Of a DNA stretch of 64,000 bases, positions 18,043 through 20,119 are shown in pieces. Below the pieces are notes generated by a model. That model ran no database searches. It saw nothing but the letters and a program-made list of their open reading frames with translations, and was not told the origin of the DNA. The DNA is from Capsulimonadaceae bacterium. Lineage in GTDB: Bacteria > Armatimonadota > Armatimonadia > Armatimonadales > Capsulimonadaceae. The position numbers were made by a program, and so were the translations under genes. Each line of letters begins with the position of its first letter. Positions within the stretch are counted from its first letter, which is position 1. The stretch spans positions 5,952,001 through 6,016,000 of the forward strand of contig OZ244065.1 in NCBI GenBank assembly GCA_965215505.1, written 5' to 3'.

Positions 18043-18078
18043 TGTGTGTTCGTGCTCGGTTCCTGAGTTGTTGGCTTT

Positions 18079-18108
18079 AGTATACTAGTGGGAGAGGGGG
18101 ATAGTCAA
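18079..18108 (-). promoter_or_regulatory. Sigma70 promoter for leuS
   Basis: TTGACT-N18-TATACT on minus strand. Confidence 0.6.
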
Positions 18109-18161
18109 GGGTACGCATTTGGATGGTGCATTAATACTATATAAATAAATCTGAATTAGTA

Positions 18162-18190
18162 TTGACAAATAATTAAGCATCTAGTATAAT
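18162..18190 (+). promoter_or_regulatory. Perfect-consensus sigma70 promoter of the accessory cassette
   Basis: TTGACA-N17-TATAAT in an AT-rich block; ATAATTAA repeated at 18169 and 18186. Confidence 0.9.
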
Positions 18191-18235
18191 TAAAATACCA
18201 AACGTCAGGAGAACACTATAAACAACTATCTGGTC

Positions 18236-18712
18236 GTGCGACGCGAATATGATGACAATGACAATGTTGCTGAAACACATCCTGAGATGCGCGTGACGGA
18301 CGTTCCCGTGGGAACAACTCTGAAACAAATCAAGGAGGTGTTGACGCAATCAGGACATACTTACCAGTGGGGCCTGTACACGGTGCTTCCAGAAGAAGAG
18401 TGGTATCCCTTAAAGGATATGATAGACCCTCGCGAATACGGAGAACGAGCGGAGCGTCTTCTGTTTTATGAGATAGGCATGGATGTCATCAGCTATGAGG
18501 AGCTACTAGACAAACTCAACGATGAAAAGCGGGTCACCCTGCGCCTTCCTGTCGGCCTTCACTTCGCTCTCTCTCGCGCCTCAGGAGACATGACACTGAA
18601 CGCCTACTGCACCAAAACCCTGGCTGATGCAGTAGGGTACGGTGACCTACCAGAATTTGAAGCCCAGCGCCGGAAACCCGGTCGCCCCAAGAAGGTCCAG
18701 GACGGCGAATAA
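18236..18712 (+). CDS. Putative DNA-binding protein with HicB-type ribbon-helix-helix and AT-hook-like tail
   Basis: KRVTLRLPVGLHFALSRAS..TLNAY; RRKPGRPKK; start codon uncertain. Confidence 0.65.
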   Translation: MRREYDDNDNVAETHPEMRVTDVPVGTTLKQIKEVLTQSGHTYQWGLYTVLPEEEWYPLKDMIDPREYGERAERLLFYEIGMDVISYEELLDKLNDEKRVTLRLPVGLHFALSRASGDMTLNAYCTKTLADAVGYGDLPEFEAQRRKPGRPKKVQDGE

Positions 18713-18723
18713 AGGAGGCGGTC

Positions 18724-19221
18724 ATGAGCGAAGAAACACGCCCGCCTCTGCTCCAACTCGGGGGCGAAGAAGCCCTCAAAGCCTACGAAAAGGAATTCGG
18801 CCAACTGTACCAAAACCGCCGTGTCTACGACATCTTGGGAAACATCGTAGTCTTTCCGCCAGGTTCTTGCTGGCATATCTGCTTCAAGCGCGATGAAGAT
18901 GACCGCTCGGCACGCCGCCCGCGTAACATTTGGTCACAGGAGCGAGCCGAACGCATACCCTGGATCATGTCTGCACTCAATGACCCGCGAACAGAAATAA
19001 GGCCGGATAGGGAGATCGAGAACCGCCTCAACTACTTGTTCATAGTGGAGGCTGATCCCGAACACAACCTGACACAAGAATTCTACTGCGTGGTCGCAGA
19101 AAGGGATATAAGAGGCATAGTGGTTCTCGTGACAGCGTTCCCCATAGACCAAAAAGGCTGGGCTAACCGCCGTCGCGCTGGCAAAGCATTGTATCCCAAC
19201 GTGAAGAAGGGCGAGGCATAA
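18724..19221 (+). CDS. Putative PBECR (Barnase-EndoU-ColE5/D-RelE fold) nuclease toxin
   Basis: Strong AAGGAGG RBS; W-H-ICFK, ERAERIPWI..ALNDP, VVLVTAFP pattern resembles PBECR2-type proteins (by eye). Confidence 0.55.
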   Translation: MSEETRPPLLQLGGEEALKAYEKEFGQLYQNRRVYDILGNIVVFPPGSCWHICFKRDEDDRSARRPRNIWSQERAERIPWIMSALNDPRTEIRPDREIENRLNYLFIVEADPEHNLTQEFYCVVAERDIRGIVVLVTAFPIDQKGWANRRRAGKALYPNVKKGEA

Positions 19222-19242
19222 AGCCTCGCCCTTCTTCTTTTT
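19203..19242. terminator. Intrinsic terminator, probably bidirectional, overlapping the nuclease stop codon
   Basis: 15-bp perfect stem GAAGAAGGGCGAGGC-ATAAA-GCCTCGCCCTTCTTC followed by T-run. Confidence 0.85.
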
Positions 19243-19378
19243 CATTTATGGCCGTAGCAACCCGCCTGGCGGCTATGATCTTTGACGGATTTCTCCGCTT
19301 TCCGGCTCGAAGGCTATTCCAGTTTCCTAGAACCCCGGCTGCCCGACTGCCCCTGATGGGGTCTCCACGGATGGGCAA
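19203..19378 (-). ncRNA. Candidate structured non-coding RNA convergent on the nuclease gene
   Basis: TGCTATAAT extended -10 at 19383-19391 (minus); hairpins TTCTAG-GAAA-CTGGAA, CGGA-GAAA-TCCG, CCCC-ATCA-GGGG within TGCCC/GGGCA; ends at terminator. Confidence 0.5.
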
Positions 19379-19519
19379 TGTTATTATAGCACATTCTATG
19401 AACTTTCCTCATGTTCATTTTCCGAGACAGCTTCGTCCTCAGCATAGGCCGCTCGCTTGAAAGGATTTCCGCCGCCCGGCGGCGAACCTCTGGGCATCAA
19501 CCGCCGAGGAGGCTTTCTT

Positions 19520-20119
19520 ATGTCCATCTCCAATTCACTGCCGATAGTCCCGGAGGAGCCGGGCGATAAAGACCGCGCGGACCTCTGGGAGCGGCTGCGG
19601 ATGCACTACACGCACCCGAAAACGCCCGTCGTCAACGCCAATGAGGTCTACCAGCAGGGGTTAAGCCCGCTGGACAAGCTGGCGGCGGCCATCACCGACA
19701 AGGTCGGCTCGATGGGGTTCTTCCTACTCATCCTGACCTGGACCATCCTGTGGACGGGCTACAACATCCTCGCCTCGGAGGTGCCTGCCCTGCACTGGAA
19801 GTCGTTTGACCCGTTCCCGGCGTTCGTCGCGTACCTGCTGATCAGCAACGTCATCCAGATCCTGCTCATGCCCCTCATCATGGTGGGGCAGAACGTCCAG
19901 AGCCGGCACTCGGAGATCCGGGCGCAGCTTGATTTCGAGATCAACCAAAAGGCCGAGAAGGAGATCGTGGTCATCCTGAAGCATTTGGAACACAACACCG
20001 ACCTGATGATTCATTTGATGCGCCACCTCCAGTGCCAGGTCGCCGACGAAGACCTCCAGGCCATTGCGGCGGAACACGAGGCGGCGGTGAAGCTGGAGCA
20101 GAAGGAAGTGAAGGCTTAG
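19520..20119 (+). CDS. DUF1003-like membrane protein
   Basis: VGSMGFF, FDPFPAF, PLIMVGQN; GAGGAGG RBS. Confidence 0.8.
   Translation: MSISNSLPIVPEEPGDKDRADLWERLRMHYTHPKTPVVNANEVYQQGLSPLDKLAAAITDKVGSMGFFLLILTWTILWTGYNILASEVPALHWKSFDPFPAFVAYLLISNVIQILLMPLIMVGQNVQSRHSEIRAQLDFEINQKAEKEIVVILKHLEHNTDLMIHLMRHLQCQVADEDLQAIAAEHEAAVKLEQKEVKA

Follow-up and report, generated by a model that had tools for sequence, protein, structure and literature searches.

The locus examined here lies in a window of 64,000 nucleotides (the whole stretch of DNA that was analysed) and places a short minus-strand unit tail to tail with the gene of a predicted RNase, which raises the question of whether this unit is a genuine RNA gene and, if so, what its product may do beside such an enzyme. 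To judge from the sequences compared, the unit is a real and previously undescribed gene for a non-coding structured RNA of ~175 nt, probably transcribed independently, that represents a new family hosted by soil bacteria of the phylum Armatimonadota. The predicted transcript (19200..19377, minus strand) consists of a conserved core of 128 nt (19377-19250), a short A-rich spacer and a terminator, its two ends (19377 and ~19200) being placed from the positions of promoter and terminator. Relatives share 72-91% identity with the core and are matched by the covariance model at 100-153 bits. The sequence-only reading that singled out the unit had not recognised a known RNA family in it, and Rfam bears this out: no Rfam 15 family reaches its gathering threshold, the whole window yielding only two tRNA matches, positions 19000-19700 yielding 20 matches at E up to 10 that are all sub-gathering and all on the terminator hairpin, and seven RNA loci yielding no match at E up to 0.01. 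Nor is this a housekeeping RNA, given that SRP RNA, RNase P RNA and tmRNA each have an above-cut-off match at another place in the genome; 6S RNA (RF00013) gave no match anywhere in the genome, with a model that detects only 5 of 14 controls, and the RNA is not rod-shaped. A protein-coding reading was rejected, for every frame is interrupted in at least one of the 14 copies and substitutions are spread 23/27/27 over the codon positions, with no periodicity.

The signals that would delimit the transcript are conserved to different degrees. An extended -10 element (TGCTATAAT, 19383..19391, minus strand) sits 5 nt upstream of the first helix, where it had been proposed, and manual reading of the flanking sequences finds in 16 of 19 loci a -10-like hexamer separated from the first helix by 5-6 nt, and in 11 of 19 the TG of the extended form; a strict two-hexamer promoter scan found none at the window locus. 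The terminator hairpin, which is bidirectional and common to the RNA and nuclease genes (19203..19237, both strands, 15 pairs), extends over the stop and the six final codons of the plus-strand ORF ending at 19221, so that the 3' end of the RNA is indeed antisense to the nuclease gene. At this position each locus has its own hairpin of unlike sequence, a 10- to 12-bp hairpin with 4 or more T among the 10 bases after it being present in 17 of 19 loci; the hairpin of the proposed terminator is confirmed, but the T-run of the window locus lies on the plus strand (TTTTTCATTT) and not on the RNA strand, where just 4 of the 10 tail bases are T. Upstream of the -10 box, the palindrome ATGAAC-N9-GTTCAT (19398..19418, both strands) has the letters and position previously given for it, and 40 of 1000 shuffles contain one as good. 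Four other loci carry palindromes of differing sequence at the same place (6 to 76 of 1000 shuffles as good) and 12 of the 17 loci tested carry none; all five palindrome-bearing loci, the window included, are nuclease-linked. The palindrome is at most a candidate operator.

The fold itself is established by comparison. Seven helices make up the 128-nt core: the closing helix P1, the 5'-terminal helix Pa, which is knotted with P1, the further long-range helices Px and Py, and the hairpins P2, P3 and P4, all on the minus strand. Pa pairs UGCCC (19373..19377) with GGGCA (19340..19344) and P1 pairs CCGUGG (19365..19370) with CUACGG (19252..19257) to close the whole core, the two crossing in a pseudoknot (alignment columns 1-5 with 34-38 for Pa, 8-13 with 121-126 for P1) in which both helices covary: Pa is paired in 98.6% of cells, its pair 3-36 being C-G in 10 sequences, U-A in 3 and U-G in 1, and P1 has compensatory changes in 3 of its 6 pairs as well as one invariant G-U (14/14). 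Among the hairpins, whose loops are mostly of the GNRA type in a manual reading of the alignment, P2 (CCCC-AUCA-GGGG, 19350..19361) is paired in 100% of cells with 2 of 4 pairs compensated and is longer in L026, L056, L059 and L041; P3 (UUCUAG-GAAA-CUGGAA, 19317..19332) includes a U-G pair and is compensated in 4 of 6 pairs; and P4 (GCGGA-GAAA-UCCGU, 19285..19298) is absent in L024, L057 and L030. Px joins GCCGGG (19334..19339) to CCAGGC (19264..19269) and is paired in 83% of cells, with G.A at the fourth pair in 12 of 14 sequences. With changed letters, it is fully paired by Watson-Crick or wobble pairs in L041, L030, L024 and L191, the last being a later find, unused in deriving the fold, in which 5 of 5 pairs form and 3 are changed on both sides (manual reading). 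Py, finally, joins CGG (19302..19304) to CCG (19270..19272) and is paired in 100% of cells, C-G having become U-A in L019.

Taken over the window and 13 relatives, this fold pairs 96.0% of 475 cells, as against 31-46% in controls whose partners were shifted by 1-3 columns, and 14 of its 35 pairs are changed on both sides, as against 2-5 in the same controls, a score reached by 0 of 500 shuffles; since the 14 sequences of the covariation alignment come mostly from one genus, these counts overstate the number of independent events. RNAalifold recovered P1, P2, P3 and P4 unaided. G-U pairs occupy 41 of the 475 cells, one of them invariant, and therefore, as the covariation also indicates, the earlier assignment of the RNA to the minus strand is right. 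Four of the five stems then proposed (TGCCC/GGGCA, CCCC-ATCA-GGGG, TTCTAG-GAAA-CTGGAA and CGGA-GAAA-TCCG) lie where they were placed and are kept with compensatory changes in the 14 sequences, whereas the fifth, TAGC..GCTA, has to be abandoned, with 71% of cells paired, 0 of 4 pairs compensated and letters that belong to other helices; three helices (CCGUGG/CUACGG, GCCGGG/CCAGGC and CGG/CCG) and the pseudoknot had been missed. Of the expectation that the RNA should fold better than its shuffles, the part concerning single-sequence energy fails, the core (19246-19378) having a z of -1.27 with 23 of 200 shuffles folding as well, whereas comparison of the 14 sequences supports the fold; the z of -4.8 obtained for the whole unit by single-sequence folding is due to the terminator that it includes. 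A local hairpin drawn by RNAalifold at columns 105-118 (94% paired, 0 compensated) was rejected, being no better than shuffles and lost in L026, L059 and L191.

The order of the strands (Pa 5', P1 5', hairpin, Pa 3', inner domain, P1 3') is that of HDV-like ribozymes, and in L041, L056 and perhaps L026 a ~30-nt leader precedes Pa that could be cleaved off, but the likeness to these nested double pseudoknots is one of topology only. No HDV-type family matches at E up to 10, and a conserved catalytic C, a P1.1 helix and an Rfam match are all lacking; in particular, the strand that joins to P1 3' (columns 115-120, GGGUUG or variants) is without a conserved C, and the loop of P2 is variable, so that there is no P1.1-type pairing. 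In 15-16 of 19 loci, moreover, the predicted start coincides with the first base of Pa, so that there is usually no 5' leader to cleave. A self-cleaving ribozyme is a most improbable identity for the RNA.

The RNA is rare, being found in 11 of 23 genomes of the genus, 16 of 71 of the order and 6 of 151 of the phylum sample, and its linkage to the nuclease gene, which the sequence-only reading did not see, was traced from the protein side. Each intact close relative of the nuclease gene (12 loci) is accompanied by the RNA, which is convergent with it in 12 of 12 linked loci, the core ending 22-91 nt past the stop codon. By source, a protein search of genome contigs gave the RNA at 5 of 5 nuclease loci, and one of the phylum (19 loci) gave it at the 5 strong matches and at the G103 locus and found it absent at the other 12, all weak; among the nuclease loci of metagenomes, 5 of 11 have the RNA, all of them within the 6 with E <=1e-37, and in the sixth of these, which is RNA-less, the nuclease gene is cut at residue 115. 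No other conserved protein gene is present in 8 of the 12 linked loci, whose settings vary (leuS, ispH-like and peptidase neighbours), as do the linked RNAs, which occur with P4, without P4 and with long inserts; in L041 and L060 the nuclease gene lies in two frames and the RNA is intact.

In 12 of 24 RNA loci there is no nuclease gene, and since several of these orphan copies look intact (six or seven: L015, L016, L019, L028, L020, L021 and perhaps L191), the RNA may work in its own right or may counter nucleases whose genes lie elsewhere. Others are decaying: a core helix is lost in 5 of 11 orphan copies as against 0 of 12 linked ones (Fisher p 0.014, with kin that are not independent). Within the genus the RNA lies upstream of leuS in 9 loci, the cargo between them being the gene A/nuclease pair described below, a 186-aa protein or a 256-aa protein. 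The 186-aa protein, which stands beside several orphan RNAs, was considered as a relative of the nuclease and rejected (hhalign probability 0.07; no family match).

That leuS is on the RNA strand, downstream, in these 9 loci and comes as near as ~230 nt (L021) is what a cis-acting leuS leader, T-box-like or another attenuator, would have to recommend it, but this possibility is close to refuted: two opposite-strand genes separate the RNA from leuS in the window, the synteny is confined to close relatives, no leuS lies within the fetched flanks of 8 nuclease-linked loci, and no T-box or leader family matches even at E up to 10. The same surroundings, together with the nuclease-less half of the loci and the orphans that keep every helix, would suit a small RNA that acts independently in some cellular role and was brought close to the nuclease by shared mobility or by a variable hot spot upstream of leuS. 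This is distinctly improbable, in that the 8 loci away from leuS, among unrelated neighbours, still pair the RNA with the nuclease gene, every intact close homologue of the nuclease has the RNA, its occurrence within the genus is patchy and orphans decay, and RNA and nuclease gene form, with gene A, a low-GC island (18050..19450, both strands; 41-56% GC vs 62-72% in the flanks). An integration site was also considered and dismissed, with no integrase recognised among the ORFs listed in the fetched flanks and an RNA that moves with the nuclease gene and not with its surroundings. On viral contigs, the nuclease protein query found 0 relatives, a loose RNA pattern gave 120 stretches, of which 80 were scanned with the model (best 17.7 bits, E 0.058, not real), and a tighter pattern gave one stretch of 9 bits, likewise not real; among plasmids, the window's nuclease was unmatched.

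The partner protein (18724..19221, plus strand; 165 aa) is predicted to adopt the RelE/colicin D (BECR) fold and to be an RNase akin to PDC-M04B and PBECR2. The PADLOC model PDC-M04B (PDLC04359) matches it with E 7.3e-9, for a model that is without a curated cut-off and with which no match in the window's own genome reached 1e-10, and Pfam PBECR2 (PF18810) matches with E 1.2e-4 at 22.8 bits, below the cut-off of 27.1; a precomputed PF18810 match exists in 4 of 91 homologue clusters. Its AlphaFold2 model has a pLDDT of 91, and the best match in a wide VIA-align search is the RelE/ParE-type toxin 7vd7_A (Z 6.3, rmsd 3.7, 88 aligned), followed by BrnT (Z 5.4) and the colicin D tRNase (Z 5.3); the top 22 rows are all RelE, ParE, BrnT, colicin D or CdiA-CT toxins, with Z from 6.3 to 3.6, values of 6.3 or less being in the range that, according to the tool, may mean a common arrangement only. 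Foldseek against the PDB gave no match to the nuclease at E up to 0.001. His51, in helix 48-53 of the model, and Thr137 are each at least 90% conserved in 55 sequences and would correspond to the PBECR site as described in the cited part of PMC5512222. The protein thus modelled looks like an active RNase.

Gene A (18236..18712, plus strand), upstream of the nuclease gene, occurs at no more than 5 of the 13 nuclease loci and encodes a 158-aa protein whose C-terminus is ribbon-helix-helix/HicB-like; it has no Pfam or PADLOC match, Pfam HicB reaching E 0.012, below cut-off, on its L014 homologue, and it was discarded as a PDC-M04A, to which it is unrelated (hhalign probability 0.09). Canonical relatives of the nuclease have a DUF3800 partner gene, PDC-M04B being the protein that accompanies DUF3800 nucleases in a candidate defence system. 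PADLOC lists PDC-M04 as a defence candidate, and a type I restriction operon on a Phyllobacterium plasmid contains it; a literature search did not find the name 'PDC-M04' and found 'PBECR2' in one paper.

The explanation that we favour, with a probability of roughly 0.4, is that the RNA acts as an antitoxin or controller of the neighbouring RelE/colicin D-fold nuclease, a reading whose basis is the linkage of the two genes. We infer that the RNA is transcribed, that the protein is toxic and that the two make contact. Transcription would begin at the extended -10 promoter, with the first base of Pa, and would end at the hairpin terminator common to the convergent nuclease gene; the product would be the RNA half of a small mobile module, with a PDC-M04B-related RNase as the protein half, and would bind the nuclease and neutralise or gate it after translation, so that the module may behave as an addiction or abortive-infection cassette. 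The 8 of 12 linked loci in which the nuclease has no other conserved partner speak for the RNA as controller, as does the decay of orphan RNAs (5/11 vs 0/12). Speaking against it, half of the RNA loci (12 of 24) are without the nuclease gene, the RHH/HicB-like product of gene A could be the real antitoxin in 5 loci, the nuclease gene is broken across frames in L041 and L060 despite an intact RNA, known type III antitoxins are same-strand tandem repeats and this RNA a single opposite-strand unit, and the protein matches are modest (Pfam below cut-off, Z <=6.3).

An analogy in favour of the controller is provided by the canonical DUF3800 + PDC-M04B modules, since all 5 of those examined have a convergent small RNA gene after gene B. 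This ~75-nt RNA of two hairpins, which follows gene B immediately and has its own -10 box and terminator, shares with the present one its place, its orientation and a partner protein from the same wider family; it differs in being smaller and simpler, in having no likeness of sequence or structure to it, and in the DUF3800 gene that is there.

The tail-to-tail arrangement in 12 of 12 linked loci may also be read as control at the RNA level, as in type I systems, by antisense pairing or by transcriptional interference through the shared 3' hairpin, and the terminator of the window is antisense to the last 19 nt of the nuclease coding sequence. In canonical PDC-M04 modules, moreover, the plus-strand hairpins are without T-runs (manual reading), so that the mRNA of gene B could run on across the small RNA gene. 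We nevertheless consider such control quite unlikely: the overlap comprises the terminator only and elsewhere the hairpin lies wholly past the stop codon (gaps of 22-91 nt), a conserved pseudoknotted core is unnecessary for antisense action, and the core against the 5' region of the nuclease mRNA gives a z of -0.9 to +1.4 in 12 of 12 loci, in what is a crude duplex test with mononucleotide shuffles. Bidirectional terminators are, besides, common among unrelated convergent genes. The type I pairs txpA/RatA and bsrG/SR4 are convergent and overlap at their 3' ends, as here, but their toxins are small hydrophobic peptides and their overlaps run to ~100 nt or more, as opposed to a 165-aa soluble RNase fold, a terminator-only overlap and a conserved tertiary-type RNA fold.

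The linkage that argues for an antitoxin or controller argues equally for an RNA needed by the nuclease as cofactor, guide or sensor, in a ribonucleoprotein in which RNA activates or aims the enzyme, for instance in phage defence. An elaborate fold with conserved junction letters and GNRA-type loops would be in keeping with such a role, and so would the listing of PDC-M04 as a PADLOC defence candidate, with its copy in a restriction operon of the Phyllobacterium plasmid. The central segment of the RNA, furthermore, has two mutually exclusive sets of partners with similar computed energies (-36.4 vs -39.6 kcal/mol for its own sequence), as expected of a switch. The second set, here called fold B, comprises a long arm found by RNAalifold (columns 32-46 with 64-77; 94% paired, 3 compensated pairs) together with the local hairpin mentioned above, and the arm is a possible alternative fold; in divergent members, though, fold B forms ~10-13 of 16 pairs, compared with 13 of 14 for fold A, the pseudoknotted one with Pa, Px and Py (manual reading). 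Because fold B fails in those members and in L191, the switch may be an artefact. A partnerless RelE-like RNase would, in addition, still require protection unless it were inert alone, and the cofactor role appears, on balance, unlikely.

If the RNA is an antitoxin or controller, the closest functional parallels are the type III systems (ToxIN, CptIN, TenpIN and AvcID), in which, according to the cited parts of PMC13682666, PMC5772629, PMC8860590 and PMC10511110, a toxin that is usually an endoRNase is neutralised by the direct binding of a pseudoknotted RNA encoded next to it, and which are mobile and tied to phage defence. In the present RNA, Tandem Repeats Finder found only an 8-nt unit (2.4 copies, score 31) and no repeat array. 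ToxI-type antitoxins are encoded as tandem repeats ahead of their toxin gene, in the same orientation, and are excised by the toxin itself, in contrast to the present RNA, a single ~130-nt unit that lies on the other strand and has a promoter there; AvcI is a single non-repeated small RNA. The folds are different as well, the nuclease being RelE/colicin D-like and not of the ToxN/AbiQ type, and its binding of the RNA is putative.

A second parallel is found in the DUF3800-I to -XI, drum and skipping-rope RNAs, which the cited part of Weinberg et al. 2017 (PMC5737381) describes as structured, of a complexity like that of riboswitches or ribozymes, and of unknown function, often followed by a Rho-independent terminator and rarely located in 5' UTRs. 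As far as that part of the source goes, many unrelated folds there apparently serve the same kind of gene, which is one point of likeness; another is that the window's nuclease is related to PDC-M04B, whose gene comes after the DUF3800 gene in canonical modules. The differences are that no DUF3800 gene is apparent at the 12 linked loci in the Pfam, PADLOC and tblastn searches made of them, the partner being a BECR-fold protein, and that the RNA matches none of those motifs in Rfam, motifs II-XI being compared only as far as Rfam contains them; the entries identified as such are RF02969 (DUF3800-I) and RF02968 (DUF3800-IX). The DUF3800-I model gave no match in the 151 phylum genomes, where controls were likewise undetected. 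It is conceivable, if doubtful, that convergent structured RNAs are a general and overlooked third component of DUF3800/PDC-M04-type modules, of which this RNA would be the first to be paired with a RelE/colicin D-fold protein alone.

RNAs with so complex a structure are uncommon and, as a rule, point to interesting biochemistry, and those associated with DUF3800 have, in the cited part of PMC5737381, been without a functional hypothesis since 2017. The present locus reduces the matter to two parts, an RNA and a RelE/colicin D-fold RNase, without any other conserved partner in 8 loci, so that the question of whether the RNA neutralises, aims or senses for the nuclease is directly testable; its compact pseudoknotted fold also makes a good target for structure determination. 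Should the RNA prove to be an antitoxin, RNA-mediated control of the type III kind would extend to the largest superfamily of toxin RNases. Were convergent RNAs indeed a third component of these modules, this one would be the first RNA antitoxin or RNA gate for an RNase of the RelE superfamily, possibly a bistable one, with a central strand that has two exclusive sets of partners, and the DUF3800-associated motifs of 2017 would gain both a named protein partner and a testable function.

The minus strand of the window carries, from about 19377 to about 19200, an RNA gene with a conserved pseudoknotted fold, promoter-like and terminator elements, and a tight two-way linkage to a gene encoding a RelE/colicin D-fold protein (plus-strand ORF 18724..19221, 165 aa). 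Comparative support that this RNA represents a real, new structured family is strong; its transcription and its contact with the neighboring protein are inferred from this arrangement, the most economical reading being that the RNA would bind the nuclease and keep it in check, much as a type III antitoxin would.

The fold of the core (19377-19250, 128 nt) was counted on A5, an alignment of the 14 members without large inserts, with helix columns numbered by alignment A1 (A5 has one additional column, i.e. +1 after column 87). Compensatory changes occur in every helix: Pa (columns 1-5 with 34-38; 1 of 5 pairs), P1 (8-13 with 121-126; 3 of 6), P2 (17-20 with 25-28; 2 of 4), Px (39-44 with 109-114; 2 of 6), P3 (46-51 with 56-61; 4 of 6), Py (74-76 with 106-108; 1 of 3) and P4 (80-84 with 89-93; 1 of 5). 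Because Pa crosses P1, the core is pseudoknotted. Standard pairs fill 96.0% of cells across the 14 sequences, as opposed to 31-46% when the partners are slid by 1-3 columns, and 14 of 35 pairs change on both sides, compared with 2-5 in the slid controls; none of 500 shuffles did as well in the percentage of paired cells or in covariation score, and RNAalifold recovered P1, P2, P3 and P4 unaided from the first 10 sequences. The fourth pair of Px is G.A in 12 of the 14 sequences. In L041, L030 and L024 this helix pairs throughout with other letters, and in L026 it retains 5 of 6 pairs; in L191, a locus found later and outside the fold derivation, 5 of 5 pairs are kept, three of them changed on both sides (read by eye). 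P4 is absent from L024, L057 and L030, and long inserts occupy P2, P3 or P4 in L026, L056, L059 and L041. The TAGC/GCTA stem that the sequence-only reading had proposed finds no support, with 71% of cells paired and zero compensation.

RNAalifold also offers an alternative consisting of a long arm (columns 32-37 with 72-77 and 41-46 with 64-70; 94% paired, three compensated pairs) and a local hairpin (columns 105-118; no compensated pair). The two folds are mutually exclusive, and for most sequences their computed energies come out similar, at about -36.4 against -39.6 kcal/mol in the window's own sequence. Divergent members accommodate some 10-13 of the 16 alternative pairs as against 13 of 14 pseudoknotted ones, and the alternative is also the worse of the two in L191 (read by eye); we regard the pseudoknotted fold as the one shared by the family. 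The central strand (window 19332-19346) has exclusive partner sets at 19301-19314 and 19264-19272, both of which covary somewhat and have similar computed energies, and may reflect either a bistable RNA (a switch) or an alignment artefact.

Every element listed by the sequence-only reading is present at the minus-strand coordinates it gave: an extended -10 box, TGCTATAAT, at 19391-19383, a TGCCC/GGGCA stem around CCCC-ATCA-GGGG, two GAAA-loop hairpins, a terminator hairpin of 15 pairs (19203-19237) and the palindrome ATGAAC-N9-GTTCAT (19418-19398), which it had put forward as a possible operator. A strict scan requiring both hexamers found no promoter. A -10-like hexamer ends 5-6 nt ahead of the first helix in 16 of 19 loci (flanks read by eye), the exceptions being L019, which has none, and L041 and L056, where it lies about 30 nt upstream; the extended -10 TG occurs in 11 of the 19. 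A hairpin of 10-12 bp followed by at least 4 T per 10 bases ends 17 of the 19, with sequences that vary between loci. The window's terminator has a poor tail on the RNA strand (4 T in 10), its T-run serving the plus-strand gene, whose end it overlaps; antisense control via this shared 3' end is a rival to the antitoxin-like reading. G-U pairs occur in 41 of the 475 helix cells, and one G-U pair, in P1, is invariant; they argue for the minus strand because they would become A.C mismatches on the opposite strand. Divergent from the RNA promoter lies a DUF1003 membrane protein gene (19520-20119, plus; Pfam E 1.1e-22), and the 130-nt intergenic space, which contains the palindrome, must accommodate both promoters.

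The case for the RNA is not established by single-sequence folding. Compared with shuffled controls, the sequence with its terminator gives z -4.83 for the minus and -4.08 for the plus strand, and the 133-nt core alone z -1.27 for the minus strand, with 23 of 200 shuffles equally good, and +0.04 for the plus strand. A protein-coding reading was rejected: neither strand has a frame that stays open across all 14 sequences (the best, on the strand opposite to the RNA, is open in 11 of 14), intact members of 127, 128 and 129 nt differ by single-base indels, and substitutions fall 23/27/27 over the three codon positions (p 0.81), i.e. without codon periodicity. As the sequence-only reading had anticipated, the RNA is no recognized family: at gathering thresholds the Rfam 15 matches in the window are two tRNAs only, the 20 matches in 19000-19700 at E up to 10 all lie far under gathering and are built on the terminator hairpin, and seven homologous RNA loci gave no match at E up to 0.01. 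The genome encodes its SRP RNA, RNase P RNA and tmRNA at other places; 6S RNA (RF00013) was not found in its 6.18 Mb, by a model that detects 6S in just 5 of 14 control genomes, and neither the shape of the RNA nor its patchy distribution fits 6S.

The RNA is single-copy in its own genome, and its relatives are assigned to Armatimonadota (Capsulimonadaceae-type MAGs). Including the metagenomic copies, the set comprises 24 loci. BLAST found matches in 10 of 23 genomes of the genus, 0 of 1 from one other genus of the family and 0 of 16 from a second family. Covariance model R1 detected it in 14 of 39 genomes of the family (3 of 10 genera) and 15 of 71 of the order, and model R2 in 16 of 71 of the order, here identical with the class (5 of 22 genera), and in 6 of 151 of a phylum sample, all from the home family or a single genome of another family (G103).

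Conversely, the RNA accompanies close homologues of the nuclease gene. It is present at 5 of 5 genome-contig loci with such a homologue; in a phylum-wide protein search (401 genomes, 19 loci) at five strong matches and the G103 locus (E 3.7e-17), and absent from 12 weak-match loci; and at 5 of 11 metagenome loci, all of which fall within the six that reach E 1e-37 or better; the remaining one of these six, L058, has its nuclease gene cut at residue 115 by unrelated DNA. Both genes occur together at 12 distinct loci, convergent in all, with 22-91 nt between nuclease stop and RNA core end; in L041 and L060 the nuclease gene reads in two frames. At 4 of the 12 the nuclease gene is preceded by gene A, whose product has an RHH/HicB-like C-terminus; the other eight lack a conserved companion and have mutually unrelated neighbors. 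Gene A, the nuclease gene and the RNA together make up an island of 1.4 kb in the window, whose GC content of 41-56% compares with 62-72% on either side. The protein encoded by gene A (18236-18712, plus) closes with an RHH/HicB-like segment and, behind it, a basic tail resembling an AT-hook; its homologues in L014, L055 and L058 (214-230 aa) have an additional middle region, and it occurs at only 5 of 13 nuclease loci.

Twelve loci carry the RNA but no nuclease gene. Most of them are from the home genus and lie upstream of leuS, with a 186-aa or 256-aa gene in the position of the nuclease; a leuS leader and an independent small RNA are rival readings. Yet a core helix has been lost in 5 of the 11 orphans then known (L022, L023, L025, L027 and L029) versus 0 of 12 linked copies (Fisher p 0.014, with kin not independent). 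In L025 (= L007, genome G021) the RNA breaks off after about 84 nt (columns ~85 onward) and an ORF continues from there, therefore pointing to an insertion or rearrangement inside the RNA gene. The 186-aa protein (L020:1830-2387, minus), of no known family, has homologues in L023, L027, L028 and L029 and a remnant in L016, and proved unrelated to the nuclease. An orphan copy in another genus (L191:2377-2516, minus; G054:C1:5876-6015) has neither nuclease gene nor leuS within 2.4 kb, and no clear promoter or terminator was seen there.

The 18724..19221 product is a predicted RelE/colicin D-fold nuclease whose activity and toxicity are likewise inferred. It matches Pfam PBECR2 under the cut-off (E 1.2e-4; 22.8 bits against 27.1) and PADLOC PDC-M04B (E 7.3e-9), with no NCBIfam match. 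Foldseek returned no significant match for an AlphaFold2 model from a 55-sequence alignment (pLDDT 91), whereas the top 22 rows of a wide VIA-align search were RelE/ParE-type toxins, BrnT, colicin D tRNase and CdiA-CT toxins, a uniform list with Z values modest by VIA-align's own note (7vd7_A, the best, Z 6.3, rmsd 3.7, 88 aligned; BrnT Z 5.4; colicin D Z 5.3). His51, which lies in a helix, and Thr137 each show conservation of at least 90% in that alignment, the pattern given for the PBECR active site by Iyer et al. (PMC5512222). The family is small: a limit of E 0.001 yields 91 clusters, none of them named.

Canonical PDC-M04 modules of the same phylum (L043, L047, L049 and L190) have gene A, a DUF3800 gene by Pfam in 3 of 3 tested, directly ahead of gene B. 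Just past gene B, on the opposite strand, all four carry a two-hairpin RNA gene of about 75 nt with its own TATAAT box and terminator (L043:1328-1420, L047:1895-1990, L049:1920-2012 and L190:1918-2006, all minus; in L190 the promoter reads TTGACA-16-TATAAT), and the same is true of a module that lies within a type I restriction operon on a Phyllobacterium plasmid (L192:2470-2560, minus). Their terminal hairpin preserves pairing through both-side change; none of these five RNAs matched Rfam, and they may correspond to one of the motifs DUF3800-II to -XI. A reverse-transcriptase/DnaG-like DRT match (PADLOC, E 4.6e-12; L047:2380-3282, minus) adjoins the module of genome G149 and points to a defence island. 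Weinberg et al. 2017 (PMC5737381) described, next to DUF3800 genes, 11 RNA motifs unrelated to one another, as well as drum and skipping-rope. Such RNAs often end in a terminator, are associated with a neighboring gene on one strand or the other and are of unknown function; self-cleavage was not seen in them. A 2026 preprint shows a DUF3800-TPR protein to be an RNase with the RNase H fold; its passages on DUF3800 do not mention ncRNAs. The window RNA is therefore a new structure of the same enigmatic kind, albeit with a BECR-fold protein as partner and no DUF3800 gene.

The RNA falls outside the type III families known so far, from which it differs in having no repeats and lying on the opposite strand; the fold of type III toxins also differs from that of the nuclease. 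An activating or sensing RNA cofactor would be a rival to the antitoxin-like role, and a ribozyme a further one. In the nuclease gene, this RNA family has an informative genetic partner, and with it a proposed function, which would be to hold that nuclease in check.
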